A stretch of 15,808 bases of DNA from a virus. Taxonomy: Duplodnaviria > Heunggongvirae > Uroviricota > Caudoviricetes. The stretch's first letter is position 1. Every line of letters starts with the position of its first letter. Below, one piece after another: positions 3,874 through 15,785 of the stretch. The position numbers were made by a program, and so were the translations under genes. The notes beneath the pieces are model-generated. The model was given only the letters and a program-made list of their open reading frames with translations. It did not search any database and was not told where the DNA came from. The stretch lies in IMG/VR virus record IMGVR_UViG_2706794698_000009; one strand, written 5' to 3'.

Positions 3874-4480
3874 TTTGCTGCTCCTCATCATATCGACCCT
3901 GCAAGGTCGGTTGGTTTCTCCACAAAACAGAGAAGAACACCTGCGGTGGCAGCCGCCCGGATGGATTGGGTTATGAGCCCNNNNNNNNNNNNNNNNNNNN
4001 NNNNNNNNNNNNNNNNNNNNNNNNNNNNNNNNNNNNNNNNNNNNNNNNNNNNNNNNNNNNNNNNNNNNNNNNNNNNNNNNNNNNNNNNNNNNNNNNNNNN
4101 NNNNNNNNNNNNNNNNNNNNNNNNNNNNNNNNNNNNNNNNNNNNNNNNNNNNNNNNNNNNNNNNNNNNNNNNNNNNNNNNNNNNNNNNNNNNNNNNNNNN
4201 NNNNNNNNNNNNNNNNNNNNNNNNNNNNNNNNNNNNNNNNNTCCATAAATGCCCTCATCGTTGCACCCTGGTCTCTTCCCAGGCGTCAAACCGAATCGCC
4301 ACGCTGGTTAGGCGTCTTATCAGCATCATCATTGACTTGCACATTCCGGCTACCTGGTTTGTTTGCCCGAGCAAGGAGTGGATTGTCCCCTTTAACGTCC
4401 CCAGACCGCTAACGACGCATGTGCCATACGCCGTGTTACAACCAAATTTTGTTAGTACCTTGTTTGTTTGTCTGGAAAGA

Positions 4481-4588: not shown

Positions 4589-5281
4589 TTAATTGTGTCG
4601 CTTAAGGGTTTGTGACTGGCTGATTAAGACCTTTCCAAAGACCATAAACCGGTGTTCATTTTCGCTGGTAATTCCCCATTCACGGTAAATCTGGTTATCA
4701 GAAATCACCAGTAGTTTGTCAGGTATCATTTGCAGTCGTTTGACATAAATTTTATCATCAAAACCAAATACATAGATACCATCTCCATCAAACTGATTGA
4801 TACTGACATCAACGAAGATGAGATCTCCTGGCTCAATGGTTGGACACATACTGTCCCCACGAACGTTGATAACTTTAATGTGATTGGCTGGCCGTCCGCC
4901 AAACATCGATACAGCATTATCAGTTCTGTATTCAATGGCATGAATCACATCAATGACATCACCGCCCTGGATAAGGCCATTTCCCGCACTGGCACTGACA
5001 TCCAGCATTTCAATACGGAATACATCCTTCACCTGCGCAACATCCTCACTAATACTGTTTTTACATACAGTATTACTTTTGACGTCTGAGGTAAAGAGAT
5101 CAGCAATATCAACACCTAAGCTCCTGGCAATATTACTCAGGGCTTGTTCAGTGAATTGTTTCTGCTTACCTGTTTCCAGGCGTGAGATATTCGCCGCATC
5201 CACTCCTATTGCTTCAGCGAGATCGGCGATTTTCATGTTCTTCGCCTGGCGAAGTTGTCTGACTCGGTTTCCTATGTTCAT
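4589..5281 (-). CDS. cI-like prophage repressor (N-terminal XRE-type HTH, C-terminal S24 LexA-like autopeptidase)
   Basis: 230 aa. The N-terminus (IADLAEAIGVDAANISRLETGK) is HTH-like. The C-terminus carries a candidate Ala-Gly cleavage site (SASAGNG), the Ser motif GDSM and the Lys motif VKRL. The gene is divergent from the cro-like gene. Confidence 0.85.
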   Translation of the reverse strand: MNIGNRVRQLRQAKNMKIADLAEAIGVDAANISRLETGKQKQFTEQALSNIARSLGVDIADLFTSDVKSNTVCKNSISEDVAQVKDVFRIEMLDVSASAGNGLIQGGDVIDVIHAIEYRTDNAVSMFGGRPANHIKVINVRGDSMCPTIEPGDLIFVDVSINQFDGDGIYVFGFDDKIYVKRLQMIPDKLLVISDNQIYREWGITSENEHRFMVFGKVLISQSQTLKRHN

Positions 5282-5287
5282 GCGTTT

Positions 5288-5364
5288 ATTACATTTCTTT
5301 ATTGCGCGTTAAGCAAATCAACTTGCGCAAAATATTTGCGTGAAATAATATGCTCATCACGCAA
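5288..5364. promoter_or_regulatory. Divergent PRM/PR-like switch region with operator dyads
   Basis: A third TTGC-N7-GCAA dyad, TTGCGCGTTAAGCAA, sits at 5302-5316. The palindrome TTGCGCAA is at 5323-5330, and TTGCGTGA-N13-TCACGCAA at 5336-5364. Rightward promoter: -35 TTGCGC (5323-5328), 17-bp spacer, -10 TAATAT (5346-5351). Leftward promoter: -35 TTGCTT (complement of 5311-5316), 17-bp spacer, -10 TGTAAT (complement of 5288-5293), which would give a near-leaderless repressor mRNA. Confidence 0.5.
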
Positions 5365-5378
5365 TATGTGGAGGTCAT

Positions 5379-5639
5379 ATGCAATCACCATTACGGAATG
5401 TGCGTAAGGCGCACGGATTTACTTTGCAGCATGTTGCTGCTGGCGTTCAGGTCAATCCAGCGACGCTGAGTCGTATTGAAAGACTGGAACAAATTCCATC
5501 TATCGATCTTGCAGAACGTCTGGCCAATTTTTTTAAGGGTGAAATCAGCGAAATGCAGATTCTTTATCCGGCACGTTTTCAATCTAGCCAAAACCAGAAT
5601 GGGTTTAAACCACAGGAACAGGAGGTAAGCCGTGGGTAA
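5379..5639 (+). CDS. Cro-like XRE-family HTH regulator
   Basis: 86 aa with HTH segment FTLQHVAAGVQVNPATLSRIERLEQIPSID. GGAGG at 5370-5374 precedes the ATG. It is the first gene of the rightward operon, opposite the repressor. Confidence 0.7.
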   Translation: MQSPLRNVRKAHGFTLQHVAAGVQVNPATLSRIERLEQIPSIDLAERLANFFKGEISEMQILYPARFQSSQNQNGFKPQEQEVSRG

Positions 5640-6183
5640 TCATCACTGGAAAGTGGAAAAACAGCCTGAGTGGTACGTGAAAGCTGTCAGAAAAACTATC
5701 GCAGCGTTGCCGGGTGGTTACGCTGAAGCAGCTGACTGGCTGGATGTAACAGAAAACGCATTATTTAACCGCCTTCGTGCCGATGGCGATCAGATTTTCC
5801 CGCTGGGATGGGCAATGATTTTGCAACGTGCTGGTGGAACTCACTTCATTGCTGACGCTGTGGCGCAGTCTGCAAATGGCGTCTTTGTGTCTCTTCCTGA
5901 CGTCGAGGATGTGGACAACGCCGATATTAACCAGCGCCTGCTGGAAGTCATTGAACAGATTGGCAGTTATTCCAGACAGATTCGTTCGGCAATCGAAGAC
6001 GGTGTGGTGGAACCGCATGAGAAGACAGCAATTAACGACGAGCTGTATCTCTCAATTTCGAAGCTGCAGGAGCATGCAGCACTGGTCTACAAAATCTTTT
6101 GCATTTCAGAAAGTAATGACGCCCGCGAGTGTGCAGCTCCGGGCGCCGTGGCGTGTCGTGACTGTGGAGAAACTAACGCATGA
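5632..6183 (+). CDS. Early regulatory protein in the cII position (possibly 186-CII/CP76-like or YdaT-like); function uncertain
   Basis: 183 aa. The GTG start at 5632 has GGAGG at 5620-5624 and overlaps the cro-like stop. The family assignment is from memory and weak. Confidence 0.45.
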
Positions 6184-6518
6184 ACAGTTTAACAACACAC
6201 TACCGTCGCTCGCAACTGATTGCGCTTCCTGTACCGGGTGGAAAAGCGAAGGTGGAGTATTGCTATGCAGTTAATGTACCAGGTGACAGGGAAATTGTAA
6301 CCCACAGCTTTGCTGAGTGGGCTGTGGGTGATTTCAACCGGCAGAAGGAGACAGTCCTTTGCGACAAGTTAACCGCTGGTTCAAAGATCACTACGGAGTG
6401 CCCGTCAGAGTCATTCGTTGGGAGCCGGAAACACAACGAGTTATCTACCTCCGCGAAGGCTATGAGCATGAGTGCTTCAGCCCGCTCGAACAGTTTCGTC
6501 GTAAATTCAGGGAAATAG
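6180..6518 (+). CDS. Hypothetical protein, possibly frameshifted; only the first half looks coding
   Basis: The ATG overlaps the upstream TGA as ATGA. Residues 1 to about 60 look protein-like; the rest is Ser/Thr-rich low complexity, while another frame looks coding over the same DNA. Confidence 0.3.
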
Positions 6519-6538
6519 AGGTCGGTCATGAGCACTAA
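6359..6538 (+). CDS. Alternative-frame small ORF (59 aa), or the 3' part of a frameshifted gene
   Basis: TTG at 6359 with AAGGAG (6344-6349) 9 nt upstream. The translation [59 protein letters not shown] is protein-like. Its TAA at 6536-6538 overlaps the start of the replication gene at 6528. Confidence 0.35.
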
Positions 6539-7469
6539 ATTAACCGGCTATGTATGGGATGGTTGCGCTGCATCAGGCATGAAATTATCCAGCGTGGCAA
6601 TTATGGCCCGCCTGGCTGATTTCAGTAATGACGAAGGTGTGTGCTGGCCATCAATTGAAACTATTGCCCGTCAGATTGGCGCGGGGATGAGTACCGTCAG
6701 GACGGCTATCGCGCGGCTGGAAGCAGAAGGCTGGTTAACGCGTAAGGCGCGTCGCCAGGGTAACCGCAATGCGTCGAATGTTTATCAGCTTAACGTTGCG
6801 AAGCTTCAGGCAGCGGCATTTTCTCAACTGTCAGATTCTGACCCGTCAAAATCTGACGCATCAAAATCTGACCCGTCAAAATTTGATGCGTCGAAATCTG
6901 GCAAAAAAGCGGGTTTTCACCCGTCAGAATCTGGCGGGGATCCGTCAGTAAAATCAAAACATGATCCGTCAGATAAAAAACCTTCTCGTCCGGACGCTTC
7001 GCAACCGGACACGCAGACGGATGAACAGGATTTTTTAACTCGCCATCCTGATGCGGTTGTATTCAGCCCTAAAAAGCGCCAGTGGGGAACGCAGGATGAT
7101 TTGACCTGCGCACAGTGGCTCTGGAAAAAAATCATCGCCCTGTACGAGCAAGCCGCCGAATGTGACGGCGAGGTGGTTCGTCCCAAAGAACCGAACTGGA
7201 CAGCCTGGGCAAACGAAATTCGCCTGATGTGTGTGCAGGATGGTCGTACTCACAAACAAATCTGCGAGATGTACAGCCGCGTCAGCCGCGATCCGTTCTG
7301 GTGCCGTAACGTGCTCAGCCCGTCGAAGTTGCGGGAAAAATGGGATGAGCTTTCCCTGCGCTTATCACCGTCCGTCAGCACGTACACCGAAAAACGCGAA
7401 GACCCGTACTTCAAATCCAGTTACGACAACGTGGACTACAGCCAGATCCCGGCAGGATTCAGGGGGTGA
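6528..7469 (+). CDS. Phage replication initiation protein (O-like; N-terminal winged-HTH, repeat linker, C-terminal DnaT-like region)
   Basis: 313 aa. The N-terminus (ARLADFSNDEGVCWPSIETIARQIGAGMSTVRTAIARLEAEGWL) resembles the replication-initiator HTH. The internal pentapeptide repeats DPSKS/DASKS are encoded by DNA iterons. Position is right of the cro/cII-like genes. Confidence 0.7.
   Translation: MSTKLTGYVWDGCAASGMKLSSVAIMARLADFSNDEGVCWPSIETIARQIGAGMSTVRTAIARLEAEGWLTRKARRQGNRNASNVYQLNVAKLQAAAFSQLSDSDPSKSDASKSDPSKFDASKSGKKAGFHPSESGGDPSVKSKHDPSDKKPSRPDASQPDTQTDEQDFLTRHPDAVVFSPKKRQWGTQDDLTCAQWLWKKIIALYEQAAECDGEVVRPKEPNWTAWANEIRLMCVQDGRTHKQICEMYSRVSRDPFWCRNVLSPSKLREKWDELSLRLSPSVSTYTEKREDPYFKSSYDNVDYSQIPAGFRG
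6827..6979 (+). repeat. Iteron array (candidate phage origin of replication) inside the initiator gene
   Basis: Five contiguous 15-bp direct repeats with consensus CCGTCAAAATCTGA span 6827-6901. Three further spaced copies lie at 6920-6934, 6941-6955 and 6965-6979. This is analogous to the lambda origin inside gene O. Confidence 0.6.
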
Positions 7470-7471
7470 TC

Positions 7472-7960
7472 ATGAGTCTGTTAAATGACGTTCAGAAATT
7501 CATTGAAGCCCATCCGGGGTGTACTTCCGGAGACATTGCGGATGCTTTTGCAGGTTACTCACGGCAGCGCGTTCTGCAGTCTGCAAGCAAGTTACGTCAG
7601 AGTGGGCGTGTGGCTCACCGTTGTGAAGGAGATACACGCAGACATTTCCCGCGCCTGACTGAGAGAGCGCAGGAGCCGGAACCACAACCAGTTCGTGAAA
7701 CCAGACCTGTGCGCAATTTCTATGTCGGCACTAACGATCCCCGGGTGATTTTGTGCCTGACCCGCCAGGCGGAAGAACTGGAGTCCAGGGGCTTATACCG
7801 TCGTGCTGCAACGGTGTGGATGGCGGCATTCCGTGAAAGCCACTCCCAGCCAGAACGAAACAATTTTCTGGCGCGTCGTGAGCAGTGTTTACGGAAAAGC
7901 AGCAAGCGTGCTGTATCGAGTGATGAGTGGTATCTGTCAGGGAATTACGTGGGGGCTTAA
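7472..7960 (+). CDS. Putative regulator with a PerC-like C-terminal motif
   Basis: 162 aa from the ATG at 7472, which has AGGGGG upstream; the ORF-track GTG at 7466 overlaps the previous stop. The motif AEELESRGLYRRAATVWMAAF resembles PerC-family activators from memory. Confidence 0.45.
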   Translation: MSLLNDVQKFIEAHPGCTSGDIADAFAGYSRQRVLQSASKLRQSGRVAHRCEGDTRRHFPRLTERAQEPEPQPVRETRPVRNFYVGTNDPRVILCLTRQAEELESRGLYRRAATVWMAAFRESHSQPERNNFLARREQCLRKSSKRAVSSDEWYLSGNYVGA

Positions 7961-8308
7961 TGAGTAATAAATATTGCCAGGCGCTGGTGGAACTACGGAA
8001 CAAACCAGCCCATGAACTGAAGGAAGTGGGCGATCAGTGGCGCACGCCGGATAACATTTTCTGGGGAATTAACACTCTGTTTGGCCCGTTTGTTCTGGAT
8101 CTTTTTACTGACGGTGATAACGCCAAATGTGCCGCGTATTACACGGCGGAAGACAACGCGCTGGCGCATGACTGGTCAGAACGTCTTGCGGAGCTTAAAG
8201 GTGCTGCCTTTGGTAATCCCCCATACAGCCGCGCCAGTCAGCATGAGGGGCAATACATCACCGGCATGCGTTACATCATGAAGCATGCCAGTGCCATGCG
8301 TGATAAAG
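7960..8308 (+). CDS. Phage Dam-type DNA N6-adenine methyltransferase (C-terminus masked)
   Basis: The ATG at 7960 overlaps the upstream TAA. Translation contains WRTPDNIFWGINTLFGPFVLDLFTDGDNAKC and the NPPY-type catalytic motif GNPPYS. The frame runs into the N block at 8309. Confidence 0.7.
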
Positions 8309-8622
8309 NNNNNNNNNNNNNNNNNNNNNNNNNNNNNNNNNNNNNNNNNNNNNNNNNNNNNNNNNNNNNNNNNNNNNNNNNNNNNNNNNNNNNNNNNNNN
8401 NNNNNNNNNNNNNNNNNNNNNNNNNNNNNNNNNNNNNNNNNNNNNNNNNNNNNNNNNNNNNNNNNNNNNNNNNNNNNNNNNNNNNNNNNNNNNNNNNNNN
8501 NNNNNNNNNNNNNNNNNNNNNNNNNNNNNNNNNNNNNNNNNNNNNNNNNNNNNNNNNNNNNNTGAGGCGTTTCTGGCGCAGGTTCGCCAGCAGGCGGAAA
8601 AACTGGTCAGGGAGATGGCGGC

Positions 8623-8949
8623 ATGACGACGTTAACTCAATGCCAGCAGCAGGTGCTGGATATGCTGATTTCTTATCAGAAAGAGCGTGGCTTTCCGCCA
8701 ACCAATCAGGAGGTGGCAACCATGCTGGGATACCGTTCAGTGAATGCAGCGGTAGAGCATCTTCGCGCACTGGAGAAAAAAGGCGTCATCACGATAAAGC
8801 GTGGCGTGGCCCGGGGGATAACGCTTCATACCGCGGTGAAGGACGACGACAGCGAGGCGGTCGGGATTATCCGCTCACTGCTTGCCGGTGAGGAAAGCGC
8901 CAGGCTGCGTGCAGCCCACTGGTTACATGAGAGGGGCCTGAAAGTATGA
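8623..8949 (+). CDS. LexA N-terminal DNA-binding-domain protein lacking the S24 peptidase domain
   Basis: 108 aa; MTTLTQCQQQVLDMLISYQKERGFPPTNQEVATMLGYRSVNAAVEHLRALEKKGVITIKRGVARGITL aligns by eye with the LexA N-terminal winged helix. There is no GDSM or VKR peptidase motif. Confidence 0.75.
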   Translation: MTTLTQCQQQVLDMLISYQKERGFPPTNQEVATMLGYRSVNAAVEHLRALEKKGVITIKRGVARGITLHTAVKDDDSEAVGIIRSLLAGEESARLRAAHWLHERGLKV

Positions 8950-9335
8950 AGCTTATTCTGCCTTTTCCGCCCAGCGTCAACACGTACTGGCGACACCCCA
9001 ACAAAGGGGCGTTTGCTGGTAAGAGCCTGATAAGCGCGGCGGGGCGAAAATTCCAGAGCGCGGCGTGCGCAGCAATAGTTGAGCAGTTACGTCGTCTGCC
9101 GAAACCAACGTCGGCACCTGCTTCAGTGGAGATCGTGTTGTTTCCTCCGGATAACCGGATCCGCGATCTGGACAACTATAACAAGGCGCTGTTTGACGCC
9201 CTGACCCACGCGGGTGTGTGGGAGGACGACAGTCAGGTGAAAAGAATGCTGGTTGAGTGGGGACCGGTTATCCCGGAAGGGAAGGTCGAGATCACTATCA
9301 GTAAGTACGAGAAAACGGCGGGTGCAGCCGCCTGA
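8946..9335 (+). CDS. rusA: RusA-family Holliday junction resolvase
   Basis: 129 aa with LPFPPSVNTYWRH ... RDLDNYNKALFDALTHAGVWEDDSQV, matching the RusA signature. The ATG overlaps the upstream TGA. Confidence 0.85.
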   Translation: MKLILPFPPSVNTYWRHPNKGAFAGKSLISAAGRKFQSAACAAIVEQLRRLPKPTSAPASVEIVLFPPDNRIRDLDNYNKALFDALTHAGVWEDDSQVKRMLVEWGPVIPEGKVEITISKYEKTAGAAA

Positions 9336-9354
9336 TTAAGAGGAGAAACGAAGT

Positions 9355-10164
9355 ATGAATAATCTGATGGTCATTGATGGTATTGAAGTTCGTCGTGATG
9401 CTTATGGGCGTTACAGCCTGAACGATCTGCACAGGGCAGCCGGGGGAGAACAAAAAAACCGCCCGAAATACTGGCTCTCCAATAAGCAAACCTGTGAATT
9501 GATTGAACAACTTTTCACCGAGGGTGGAATTCCGCCTCTGGAACAAAATCAACCAGTTAGCGTCATTAATGGCGGAAATAACCAGGGGACGTATGTCTGC
9601 AAAGAACTGGTGTATGCCTATGCAATGTGGATCAGCCCGTCATTCCATCTGAAGGTGATCCGTACTTTCGATATGGTAACCAGCGTACCGGAAAAATTAT
9701 CCGGGCAGGCTGCTGACAAGATGCAGGCTGGAGTGATTCTGCTGGACTTTATGCGCAGGGAGTTAAACCTGTCTAACTCTTCAGTGCTTGGGGCCTGTCA
9801 GAAACTCCAGGAGGCTGTTGGCTTACCGAATCTGGCACCGCGCTTTGCCATTGATGCTCCTGCTGACGCGCCTGATGGCTCAAGTCGCCCGACACTGTCG
9901 CTGAGTGCACTGCTGAAACAGTATGGTATCCGCCTTACGGCTAATCAGGCATATCACCAGATGGCGAAGCTGGGGATCGTCGAGCAGCGCGAACGATACA
10001 GCCGTACCGCGATTAACAACATCAAAAAATTCTGGTCGCTGACGGCGAAAGGCTGCATGTTCGGCAAGAACATCACCAGTCCCGCAAATCCGCGCGAGAC
10101 GCAGCCGCATTTCTTCGAATCCCGATTCCCTGAGCTGTTAAAGTTGCTCGATACCGTTCATTGA
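9355..10164 (+). CDS. KilA-N domain protein (antirepressor-like)
   Basis: 269 aa with a KilA-N-like N-terminus (IDGIEVRRDAYGRYSLNDLHRAAGG ... YVCKELVYAYAMWISPSFHLKVIRTFD). GAGGAG precedes the ATG. Confidence 0.7.
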   Translation: MNNLMVIDGIEVRRDAYGRYSLNDLHRAAGGEQKNRPKYWLSNKQTCELIEQLFTEGGIPPLEQNQPVSVINGGNNQGTYVCKELVYAYAMWISPSFHLKVIRTFDMVTSVPEKLSGQAADKMQAGVILLDFMRRELNLSNSSVLGACQKLQEAVGLPNLAPRFAIDAPADAPDGSSRPTLSLSALLKQYGIRLTANQAYHQMAKLGIVEQRERYSRTAINNIKKFWSLTAKGCMFGKNITSPANPRETQPHFFESRFPELLKLLDTVH

Positions 10165-10165
10165 G

Positions 10166-11161
10166 GTGACCGTGAGAGCACTACTGACCCCTGAAATAGC
10201 CCCGCGTATGGGGATCGTATTGTTCAGGCCAGGTTCAGAGCTGATGCCCCTGTTTATGCAGGGGCGTGTCCTGCTGGAGCCTGAGCCGGAACGTTATTCA
10301 TCTTTCGCCAGTGGTGCCGTTCCGGCGGCATCACAACCGCTGGCGGATGATCCTGCCGTTCGGGCCGTGTTCCGCAATGAGGCAGTGATCCGTCGTGCTG
10401 GTGGCGTGGAATGTCTTGAAAGCTGGTTACTTCGTGAAAAAGGCTGCCAGTGGCCTCATTCCGACTGGCACAGCGAGAACATGACCACAATGCGACACGC
10501 TCCGGGCGCAATTCGTCTGTGCTGGCACTGCGATAACCAGCTGCGCGATCAGTTCACGGAACGGCTGGAATCAATGGCAACGGATAACTGTGCCCGCTGG
10601 GTGTTGTCTGTTGTGCGTCGGGATCTCGGTTTTGATGACAGTCATGTTGTGACAATGCCGGAACTGTGCTGGTGGCTGATTCGTAATGATCTGGCGGATG
10701 CCTTACCGGAAAGTGCAGCCCGTAAGGCACTGAGATTACCGAAGCCTGTTGTGCCGTCTGTTACCCGGGAAAGTGACCTTGTGCCTTCGGTTCCTGCCAC
10801 CAGCATCATCCAGGATAAGGCGAAAAAGGTGCTGGCGCTGAAAGTGGATCCGGAGTCGCCGGAGTCTTTTATGTTACGCCCAAAACGTCACCGCTGGGTT
10901 AATGAAAAGTACACGCGCTGGGTTAAGACGCAGCCGTGCGCATGTTGTGGAAAACCTGCTGATGATCCCCACCACCTGATAGGCCACGGTCAGGGGGGAA
11001 TGGGTACAAAAGCGCATGACCTTTTTGTGTTGCCTTTGTGCAGAAAGCATCACGACGAGCTGCATGCGGATACCGTGGCATTTGAAGAGAAGTATGGCTC
11101 CCAGCTGGAGCTGATATTTCGTTTTATCGATCGTGCGCTGGCAATAGGCGTACTGGCGTAA
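10166..11161 (+). CDS. ydfU: DUF968-family prophage protein with a C-terminal HNH-like Cys/His motif (YdfU-like)
   Basis: 331 aa. The C-terminus reads CACCGKPADDPHHLIGHGQGG ... CRKHHDELH. It sits immediately upstream of the Q gene, as ydfU does in Qin. The start could be GTG at 10166 or GTG at 10172. Confidence 0.6.
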   Translation: MTVRALLTPEIAPRMGIVLFRPGSELMPLFMQGRVLLEPEPERYSSFASGAVPAASQPLADDPAVRAVFRNEAVIRRAGGVECLESWLLREKGCQWPHSDWHSENMTTMRHAPGAIRLCWHCDNQLRDQFTERLESMATDNCARWVLSVVRRDLGFDDSHVVTMPELCWWLIRNDLADALPESAARKALRLPKPVVPSVTRESDLVPSVPATSIIQDKAKKVLALKVDPESPESFMLRPKRHRWVNEKYTRWVKTQPCACCGKPADDPHHLIGHGQGGMGTKAHDLFVLPLCRKHHDELHADTVAFEEKYGSQLELIFRFIDRALAIGVLA

Positions 11162-11174
11162 GTGGAGAACGAGC

Positions 11175-11927
11175 ATGAACCTTGAAGCCTTACCAAAATA
11201 TTACTCCCCAAAATCTCCAAAATTGAGTGATGACGCACCGGCGACAGGCTCTGGTGGTTTAACGATTACGGATGTGATGGCTGCGCAGGGGATGGTGCAA
11301 TCGAAAGCACCGCTTGGGTTTGCCTTATTCCTGGCAAAAGTTGGTGTTCAGGATCCTCAGTTTGCGATTGAAGGTCTGCTCAATTACGCGATGGCACTGG
11401 ATAACCCGACATTGAATAAATTGAGTGAAGAAACCCGGCTACAGATTATTCCTTACCTTGTGAATTTTGCCTTTGCTGATTATTCCAGGTCTGCGGCAAG
11501 TAAGGCTCGTTGTGAGCATTGTGCTGGTACTGGATTTCATAATGTATTGCGCGAAGTGGTGAAACACTCCAGAAGCGGGGAATCTGTTATCAAAGAAGAG
11601 TGGGTGAAGGAACTATGTCAGCATTGCCATGGTAAGGGAGAAGTCAGCACAGCGTGCAGAGGGTGTAAGGGTAAAGGTATTGTCCTGGATGAAAAAAGGA
11701 CCCGGCTTCATGGCACACCTGTTTATAAGATTTGTGGGCGTTGCAATGGAAAACGGTTTAGTCGTTTACCAACCACACTGGCGCGGCATCATGTCCAGAA
11801 GCTGGTACCGGACCTGACTGATTATCAGTGGTACAAAGGATATGCAGATGTCATTGATAAACTGGTTACAAAGTGCTGGCAGGAAGAAGCATATGCTGAG
11901 GTGCAATTAAGAAAAGTGACGAGATAA
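11175..11927 (+). CDS. quuQ: Late-gene antiterminator Q (phage-82/Qin type, zinc-binding)
   Basis: 250 aa. The start MNLEALPKYYSPKSPKLSDDAPATG and the Cys clusters (CEHCAGTG, CQHCHGKG, CRGCKGKG, CGRCNGK) match remembered QuuQ closely. Confidence 0.85.
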   Translation: MNLEALPKYYSPKSPKLSDDAPATGSGGLTITDVMAAQGMVQSKAPLGFALFLAKVGVQDPQFAIEGLLNYAMALDNPTLNKLSEETRLQIIPYLVNFAFADYSRSAASKARCEHCAGTGFHNVLREVVKHSRSGESVIKEEWVKELCQHCHGKGEVSTACRGCKGKGIVLDEKRTRLHGTPVYKICGRCNGKRFSRLPTTLARHHVQKLVPDLTDYQWYKGYADVIDKLVTKCWQEEAYAEVQLRKVTR

Positions 11928-13071: not shown

Positions 13072-13755
13072 AATTCATAGTTTGTCTGTATACGATAACG
13101 AAGAAGGCTGATGCCTGAGTGGAGATACAGACAGAGTGGTGAATATTGGATCTCTTTAATAAATAGTAAGGAGGTCCAATACATGAAACAATGGCCAGCA
13201 TATTTGGCAATAACTTAATCAGGAAAAGTATGCTAACCATTGTGGTGAAGTGCAGGTTTGCTGCATGAATAGTTTTACAGCAGAAGCTAACTGCTGGCAT
13301 AGCAAAACAAAGTGCGTAAGTGGATGACNNNNNNNNNNNNNNNNNNNNNNNNNNNNNNNNNNNNNNNNNNNNNNNNNNNNNNNNNNNNNNNNNNNNNNNN
13401 NNNNNNNNNNNNNNNNNNNNNNNNNNNNNNNNNNNNNNNNNNNNNNNNNNNNNNNNNNNNNNNNNNNNNNNNNNNNNNNNNNNNNNNNNNNNNNNNNNNN
13501 NNNNNNNNNNTGATTTTGAGTCTTTACGTTCTGACATAGGCTTTTCCTGTATAAATGGCCGTATACAGTACACTAAATATGAAAACATATCTCGTATTAT
13601 TATTTAATACATGATTTTCTTTTAAAATAATTACCCACATTTTTAATGTGTCTGTTTTTTAGCGCCGTTGAGAACAATGTTTGCTATAAAAACTAACCCA
13701 TAGACTCCGATCTTTTCAAACATATTGCACCATCTGTGTACATCGGGGCGAGGAT

Positions 13756-13916: not shown

Positions 13917-14165
13917 NNNNNNNNNNNNNNNNNNNNNNNNNNNNNNNNNNNNNNNNNNNNNNNNNNNNNNNNNNNNNNNNNNNNNNNNNNNNNNNNNNNN
14001 NNNNNNNNNNNNNNNNNNNNNNNNNNNNNNNNNNNNNNNNNNNNNNNNNNNNNNNNNNNNNNNNNNNNNNNNNNNNNNNNNNNNNNNNNNNNNNNNNNNN
14101 NNNNNNNNNNNNNNNNNNNNNNNNNNNNNNNNNNNNNNNNNNNNNNNNNNNNNNNNNNNNNGAAT

Positions 14166-14357: not shown

Positions 14358-14763
14358 NNNNNNNNNNNNNNNNNNNNNNNNNNNNNNNNNNNNNNNNNNN
14401 NNNNNNNNNNNNNNNNNNNNNNNNNNNNNNNNNNNNNNNNNNNNNNNNNNNNNNNNNNNNNNNNNNNNNNNNNNNNNNNNNNNNNNNNNNNNNNNNNNNN
14501 NNNNNNNNNNNNNNNNNNNNNNNNNNNNNNNNNNNNNNNNNNNNNNNNNNNNNNNNNNNNNNNNNNNNNNNNNNNNNNNNNNNNNNNNNNNNNNNNNNNN
14601 NNNNNNNTTAAATCAGCAAAAGTTTGTTTTGGTAGATTTGTGTAATCCATAGTCACCTCTGTGTTTATCAGATTGACATCCTCCTCCCGCCAGTGCCCAT
14701 CACTGGTGAGGTAAGATTTAACATATCCGGGGATTTGAAGCCGATAAATCCTGATAAATATCC

Positions 14764-15785
<1,022 letters not shown>

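Follow-up and report, generated by a model that had tools for sequence, protein, structure and literature searches.

A row of short palindromic repeats inside the initiator gene of an SfII/SfIV-like lambdoid prophage is, at a rough probability of 0.75, the phage's replication origin, laid out on the lambda plan with a different DNA-binding domain and with repeats of its own. This reading is drawn from the sequence of one stretch of 15,808 nt (hereafter the window) and from comparison with its relatives; SfII and SfIV themselves are serotype-converting Shigella phages. Origins formed by iterons inside the initiator gene are textbook knowledge for lambda, phi80, P22, phage L and the Stx phages. 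A search of the literature and of sequence-record annotation found no description of the present origin, its binding or its replication: the site sequences returned unrelated primers only, and the SfIV genome paper names a replication module and gives no origin. The features discussed below are collected in Table 1.

Table 1. Features of the window; single positions mark the start of an iteron core.
Feature	Position	Strand	Basis or sequence
Masked N runs	2403-2662, 3981-4241, 8309-8562, 13329-13510, 13917-14161, 14358-14607, 14929-15178		
cI-like repressor	4589-5281	-	
cro-like gene	5379-5639		
cII-like gene	5632-6183		
Small gene without assignment	6180-6518		
Replication initiator gene, 313 aa, mosaic O-like	6528-7469	+	PHROG 391, E 1.2e-135
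N-terminal winged-helix DNA-binding domain, residues 1-99	6528-6824	+	Pfam HTH_36
Predicted disordered linker, residues 102-161	6831-7010	+	AlphaFold pLDDT <50; overlaps the whole repeat region
Iterons 1-5, head-to-tail	6830-6902	none	13-bp near-palindromes, 15-bp period
Iteron 1 core	6830		GTCAGATTCTGAC
Iteron 2 core	6845		GTCAAAATCTGAC
Iteron 3 core	6860		ATCAAAATCTGAC
Iteron 4 core	6875		GTCAAAATTTGAT
Iteron 5 core	6890		GTCGAAATCTGGC
Spacer with A6 tract and T4 tract	6903-6919	none	Direct reading of the sequence, AAAAAAGCGGGTTTTCA
Iteron 6, isolated	6920-6938	none	Dyad widened to 19 bp, one mismatch: CCCGTCAGAATCTGGCGGG
Iteron 6 core	6923		GTCAGAATCTGGC
Two 24-bp units (GATC, half-site CCGTCAG, A-rich tail)	6939-6986	none	Direct repeat D9
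C-terminal domain, lambda O/phi80 gp15 type	7014-7367	+	BLASTP; pLDDT ~90-97

The open reading frame that holds the array encodes 313 aa, as the initial annotation had stated, and its best PHROG family carries the label 'replication initiation O-like'. The DNA of the gene is 98-99.8% identical to counterparts in SfII, SfIV, vB_EcoM-689R6 and several E. coli phages, in which it is annotated as 'DNA replication protein O', 'primosomal protein' or 'replication protein'. At the N-terminus, residues 23-70 match Pfam HTH_36 (PF13730, E 4e-11), and Pfam gives no match to Phage_rep_O (PF04492) anywhere in the protein. An AlphaFold model built on 44 homologues arranges this domain as H-H-H-H-strand-strand, a fold that resembles MarR/ArsR-type dimeric winged helices in a PDB fold search; generic MarR/ArsR-type winged helices were the only solved structures matched, and the C-terminal domain found no template. 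Residues 169-278 align by BLASTP with the C-terminal domains of lambda O (E 7e-26) and phi80 gp15 (E 4e-25), and the same comparisons give no similarity at the N-terminus. On these matches the initiator is a mosaic of a non-lambda N-terminus and a lambda-O-like C-terminus. Since the stretch of low model confidence lies between two confidently modelled domains (the winged helix and a helical C-terminal domain, residues 163-280), the repeat region is predicted to encode the disordered linker of a mosaic O-type initiator. A separate observation concerns the extreme C-terminal tail, VDYSQIPAGFRG (7434-7466), which is nearly invariant across C-terminal domain types; replication genes of SfV, mEp460, cdtI and Stx phages that otherwise differ share its final 76 nt at 96-97% identity. 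The tail is possibly a motif for a host partner, or else a mosaic joint.

Tandem Repeats Finder detects a period of 15 over 6837-6900, with 4.3 copies and a score of 86 (100 when read as period 30); this is the top-scoring tandem repeat of the window, all others scoring 39 or less. A repeat search gives six in-register copies with spacings of 15, 15, 15, 15 and 33, so that both programs bear out the five contiguous 15-bp direct repeats first proposed from the letters alone. Each 15-bp unit contains a 13-bp near-palindrome, GTCARAWTCTGRC, with 2 bp between contiguous sites, and the internal dyad symmetry makes these near-palindromes match on both strands. With up to two mismatches, GTCARAWTCTGRC yields 11 strand-hits, every one in 6830-6935, against a mean of 2.08 in shuffles of the 15.8-kb window, none of 200 of which reaches 11. 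In gene coordinates the sites span nt 303-408 of 942, with the winged helix on one side and the C-terminal domain on the other. Three additional spaced copies had also been claimed: one stands as a full site (core 6923-6935), starting 33 bp beyond iteron 5, whereas the other two, at 6942 and 6966, reduce to half-sites CCGTCAG. The predicted linker of DPSKS/DASKS type is indeed what the array encodes, its translation being SDSDPSKSDASKSDPSKFDASKSG, and the segment 6827-6979 originally delimited is correct, with a conserved right-hand element that reaches about 6986. The heptamer CCGTCAG is itself enriched in the window (12 found, 1.3 expected). Additional copies at 6402, 6668, 6694 and 7372 were not counted as sites, the two within the N-terminal domain because their synonymous positions are not kept in homologues (R48 CGT 27%, R58 AGG 3%). 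Seven masked runs of N take up about 1.7 kb of the window and touch none of the initiator gene repeats; the masked sequence might contain a further repeat cluster. Open reading frames that cross these runs are unreliable, as with the apparently truncated Dam gene.

Evidence that the repeats function as DNA comes from 81 non-identical homologues of the N-terminal domain (52-100% N-terminal identity), drawn from phage records and from bacterial contigs limited to one genome per species; counts over this set are not phylogenetically independent. In these homologues the core TCA[AG]AATCTG, allowing at most one mismatch, occurs 22.7 times per kb in the linker and 0.18 times per kb elsewhere, an approximately 120-fold enrichment over the rest of the 5.3-kb loci. 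Codon choice in the linker departs from that of the same genes elsewhere: 83% against 36% for Ser TCA plus TCT, 97% against 66% for Lys AAA and 70% against 43% for Asp GAC. A protein-anchored comparison, limited to positions where the amino acid equals that of the window, finds the same codon at 43% of these positions within the N-terminal domain, which served as the control region and in which synonymous sites are thus saturated, and at 87% across the 20 codons spanning site 6 and the GATC units. Fisher tests made homologue by homologue for 68 of them give a median p of 5e-4, with 88% below 0.01. Within site 6, TCA/CCA is retained in 69/69, GAA in 65/69 and TCT in 67/69; on the right flank GAT-CCR is retained in 69/69 (GAT, never GAC) and GTA in 68/69. 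No other site of the family is as well conserved as iteron 6. Since variable codons are interspersed at positions -2, +9, +11 and +12, the conservation is not explained by a recent transfer of the segment as a whole.

Changes that do alter the protein point in the same direction. In 50 of 397 linker core copies (13%) Pro, Ala or Thr replaces the first Ser and NCARAATCTG remains intact; the replacements arise by change of the first codon base only, and Ser-to-Pro changes leave the core YCAGAATCTG intact. Two homologues (L005 and L078) carry site 6 in another reading frame, with RQNL/LQNL in place of SES, the segment reading TTTGACCCTTCAGAATCTGAC in L005 and TTTTCACCCGTCAGAATCTGAC in L078. Synonymous conservation, core-preserving amino-acid changes and the frame shift of the site together defeat an explanation by the peptide only, and the comparison indicates that the repeats are under purifying selection at the nucleotide level, beyond the encoded peptide. 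Unit number does vary: where the first 100 residues equal those encoded in the window, the gene has five, six or seven 15-bp units (L112, L119, L120, L124). In another homologue (L101), an A6-to-A7 frameshift in the spacer, at the equivalent of 6904-6909, truncates the protein at 145 aa and may be a sequencing error or mark a pseudogene.

The sites and the N-terminal domain are passed on together. Each of the 81 homologues of that domain carries between two and nine core copies, and the sites co-segregate with it whichever C-terminal domain follows (lambda-O type in 16, Phg_2220_C in 61, others in 4); lambda and phi80, conversely, share the C-terminal domain but have another N-terminal family and unrelated iterons. 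The central CAGAATCTG of the site and the recognition-helix motif ST[VI]R are both near-constant within the family. In sublineages with an altered helix or wing (for example STVITLI with GQRSTSNLY, or STVYGAL) the outer bases of the site change symmetrically, from GTCA...TGAC to TCCA...TGGA or TTCA...TGAA. Complementarity of the arm pairs 5/15 and 4/16 across 257 distinct sites exceeds that of each of 2000 shuffles, with pair 5/15 (T..A to C..G) complementary in 191 sites against a shuffle mean of 162 (sd 4.7), figures that shared ancestry inflates. From this pattern, together with the different palindromic repeats that more distant HTH_36 initiators have at the same position (below), we infer that the initiator binds the dyad sites through its winged helix; it is also the pattern expected if the N-terminal domain and its sites form a specificity module.

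To the right of iteron 6 lie two 24-bp units, GATCCGTCAGTAAAATCAAAACAT and GATCCGTCAGATAAAAAACCTTCT, in each of which GATC precedes the half-site CCGTCAG (6942-6948 and 6966-6972). The first GATC is invariant in all 69 anchored homologues, and one homologue (L079) has three such units. Positions 6947-6986 form the least stable 40-mer of the gene, with 69-71% A+T against 47% for the gene as a whole; its least stable 30-mers likewise fall within the 24-bp units, and the A residues are on the top strand. Measured against the window, this segment ranks only among the least stable 5-6% of positions, and its A+T content is weaker than that of the 38-bp stretch of lambda. The segment 6939-6986 is thus a natural candidate for the DNA-unwinding element, at which unwinding would start. 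In the spacer to the left of iteron 6, the TTT codon is retained in 66/69 homologues. A small terminator-like hairpin on the minus strand at 6923-6910 was set aside, as the homologues do not preserve it as a hairpin. DnaA boxes (TTWTNCACA with one mismatch) are at background in the window, 33 hits against 31 expected, with none in 6800-7000, and a scan for promoters and terminators over 5200-8200 stayed near chance level.

Downstream of the initiator come genes for a PerC-domain protein, a Dam-type methylase, a repressor-like protein, RusA, a regulator, an HNH endonuclease and a Q-like antiterminator. No helicase-loading gene of P, DnaB or DnaC type was found between the initiator and the Q-like gene (7466-11927), a stretch in which the masked run 8309-8562 falls inside the Dam gene; such a gene is also absent from the corresponding loci of SfIV, Klebsiella phage 1 LV-2017, Eeyore, YeP2 and phiNP. 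The loader gene is missing even though the C-terminal domain of the initiator shares homology with the domain by which lambda O binds P. The Dam-type methylase of the window lies at 7927-8565. Among 80 homologue loci (L002-L087), 52 have an adenine methyltransferase gene within 2.5 kb downstream of the initiator, and in 23 loci it abuts the initiator stop codon; these neighbours may be set beside the conserved GATC that starts each putative unwinding unit.

Rows of direct repeats bound by a winged-helix initiator beside an unwinding element are familiar from iteron plasmids (RepA of pPS10, RepE of F, pi of R6K), whose iterons, of about 19-22 bp and in helical phase, lie between genes, with a Rep protein of two winged helices and usually with DnaA boxes. 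The window departs from them in its intragenic 15-bp units, in the single winged helix of the model and in lacking a DnaA box in the 6800-7000 segment. The closer parallel is lambda, where gene O likewise has dyad repeats that separate its N-terminal DNA-binding domain from its C-terminal domain and, to the right of the repeats, an A-rich stretch (PMC3349717). Lambda iterons occupy gene nt 349-433 of 900, a relative place that matches the sites of the window, the C-terminal domains are homologous, and the gene order cI, cro, cII, initiator is the same. The lambda-like placement proposed at the outset, between an N-terminal DNA-binding domain and a lambda-O-homologous C-terminal domain, is therefore upheld. 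The likeness to lambda extends to architecture and C-terminal domain, but not to the N-terminal domain, which in lambda O is Phage_rep_O (PF04492, E 6e-36) and here HTH_36, nor to a P-type partner gene: the helicase step of lambda requires P (PMC3349717), and here no such gene follows. The site sequences are unrelated (GTCARAATCTGAC here, TCCCTCAAAACGAGGGA in lambda), and lambda has four iterons at 20-24 bp instead of five plus one at a 15-bp period. Lambda has, on the right of its iterons, a 38-bp A+T-rich block (PMC3349717), of which 6939-6986 would be the weaker counterpart.

Phage phi80 shows the same architecture, with four annotated gp15-binding sites inside gene 15 (gene nt 365-441) and a homologous C-terminal domain, and it differs in the same respects: its gp15 N-terminus is Phage_rep_O (PF04492, E 6e-25) and not HTH_36, its iterons have another sequence and a spacing of 20-24 bp instead of 15, and a P-like gene 14 follows. 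In Stx phages 933W and P27 the O gene has six iterons and the O proteins are dimers; like the window, these phages exceed the four iterons of lambda, the extra units lengthening the initiator linker (PMC7466680). They combine a lambda-type O with lambda-type iterons; the window has another domain family and another site sequence. Members of the HTH_36 family itself, 35-45% identical at the N-terminus, occur in 24B (O), SI5, mEp460 and Vibrio phage D75, and carry their own palindromic repeats directly after the winged helix (gene nt 265-370): GGGGCAGGAGCTGCCC in 24B and SI5, GTGCAGGAGATTCAC in mEp460 and GTGACAAAATGTCAC in D75. These repeats are unrelated in sequence to those of the window and are spaced 21-24 bp apart; 24B and SI5 also have a primase/helicase gene downstream. 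New here relative to known lambdoid origins would be, on these sequence comparisons, the N-terminal family, the site sequence, the 15-bp period, the weaker A+T block and the missing loader gene.

Two further likenesses were noticed. To the right of the A+T-rich regions, lambda has CGTCAGAGAATTCTGGCG (L168, 1162-1179) and phi80 CGTCCGAGAATTCTGACG (L170, ~582-600), both resembling site 6, CGTCAGAATCTGGCG, with three extra central bases, either by chance or as a shared element. In mEp460 (L174, 1810-1849) and D75 (L175, 1768-1795), two to three copies of the 11-mer AGAACCAGTCA lie immediately to the right of the iterons; both phages share it although their iterons differ, and it may be a second conserved origin element of HTH_36-type initiator genes.

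That the repeats are merely a low-complexity DPSKS/DASKS linker, generated by slippage and devoid of a function as DNA, agrees with the predicted disorder of this Ser/Asp/Lys-rich region and with the variation of near-identical genes by whole 15-bp units, which slippage predicts. This account is nonetheless very improbable and largely refuted: synonymous sites are conserved here and saturated in the structured N-terminal domain, the invariant GAT and nearly invariant GTA codons exceed what the peptide asks for, the nucleotide core survives both the replacement of Ser by Pro, Ala or Thr and the passage into another frame, and dyad symmetry is not required of a peptide repeat. Only a slim chance can be given to a constraint imposed by an overlapping antisense gene, or by hairpins in mRNA or single-stranded DNA, in place of duplex initiator sites. 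Across the region one antisense frame lacks stops in 47 of 70 homologues, forming in the window a 55-aa ORF (6790-6957, minus strand); the frame is closed in the remaining 23/70, however, and other alternative frames are closed in nearly all, so that the 55-aa ORF is probably a by-product of the repeat sequence. The fold of the top strand is indeed far stronger than that of shuffles (-28.4 kcal/mol as DNA, z -4.9), an automatic outcome of tandem palindromes, but 118 of the 257 distinct sites have a non-complementary inner pair 8/12 (A..C), and a 5-bp hairpin is weakened by it. The best Rfam match, to a microRNA family, is sub-threshold (30.7 bits against a cut-off of 97 bits) and is likewise caused by the palindromes.

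A more serious competitor, still unlikely, accepts the repeats as true protein-binding sites and assigns them a role other than initiation, the origin lying elsewhere. They could serve autoregulation or titration of the initiator, act as a roadblock to early transcription or bind another phage or host protein. Iteron-type sites have control roles in plasmids, which lends this option some precedent, and the array has neither a strongly A+T-rich block nor a DnaA box nor a loader gene beside it. Against it, the readable part of the window has no other repeat cluster, the position equals that of the proven lambda and phi80 origins, the sites remain linked to the DNA-binding domain of the initiator across domain swaps, and the least stable segment of the gene, itself conserved, directly adjoins them. 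Several features count against the origin reading in general: the period of 15 bp is tight compared with 20-24 bp in relatives and lambda, neither a helicase-loader gene nor a DnaA box is nearby, and the A+T flank is weaker than that of lambda. A plasmid using this initiator as its only replicon was also looked for; the small circular records found look like parts of prophages, either excised or wrongly assembled (an e14-like element and a Stx-phage early region), and are uninformative on origin function. One of them, a circular record of 15,193 bp filed as a plasmid (L171, OR902851.1), encodes an 80% homologue of the N-terminal domain and resembles an excised e14-type element, with mcrA, an invertase and an icd fragment.

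Under the preferred reading, an intragenic origin of lambda type, early rightward transcription from the cI/cro region would yield the initiator, whose N-terminal winged helix, probably as a dimer, would bind the 13-bp dyads, five contiguous and one isolated and widened to 19 bp. Because the 15-bp period leaves gaps of only 2 bp between 13-bp sites, dimers may not fill all five at once. The packed nucleoprotein complex would distort the DNA and open the adjacent A-rich, GATC-bearing 24-bp units, after which the lambda-O-like C-terminal domain would bring in the helicase.

It is tempting to speculate further, at distinctly low odds, on a loader-less, methylation-sensitive origin of three parts. 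The densely packed 15-bp sites would nucleate a continuous initiator filament; the 24-bp units with their invariant GATC would constitute an unwinding element gated by Dam or SeqA; and the conserved tail VDYSxIPxGFRG, common to unrelated C-terminal domains, would recruit host DnaB-DnaC directly, replacing lambda P. Gating of this kind, if true, would explain why an adenine methyltransferase gene so frequently abuts the initiator.

The accepted picture of lambdoid replication is left unchanged by an origin of lambda type in this gene, and the practical reach of the finding follows from the abundance of the family. A search at E <= 1e-5 gave 2370 relatives, single 90%-identity clusters have thousands of members, and the family is very common in enterobacterial prophages, yet database labels offer only 'helix-turn-helix domain-containing protein', 'primosomal protein' and 'protein O'. 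Narrowing the probable origin to a segment of 160 bp would supply a defined cis element with which to build replicons and to map prophage induction in the serotype-converting phages of Shigella and E. coli. The array also offers a clean case of dual coding, in which a disordered linker tolerates a DNA signal. Once again, origin specificity, residing in the N-terminal domain and its sites, and host coupling, residing in the C-terminal domain, would appear to be exchanged between phages as separate modules.
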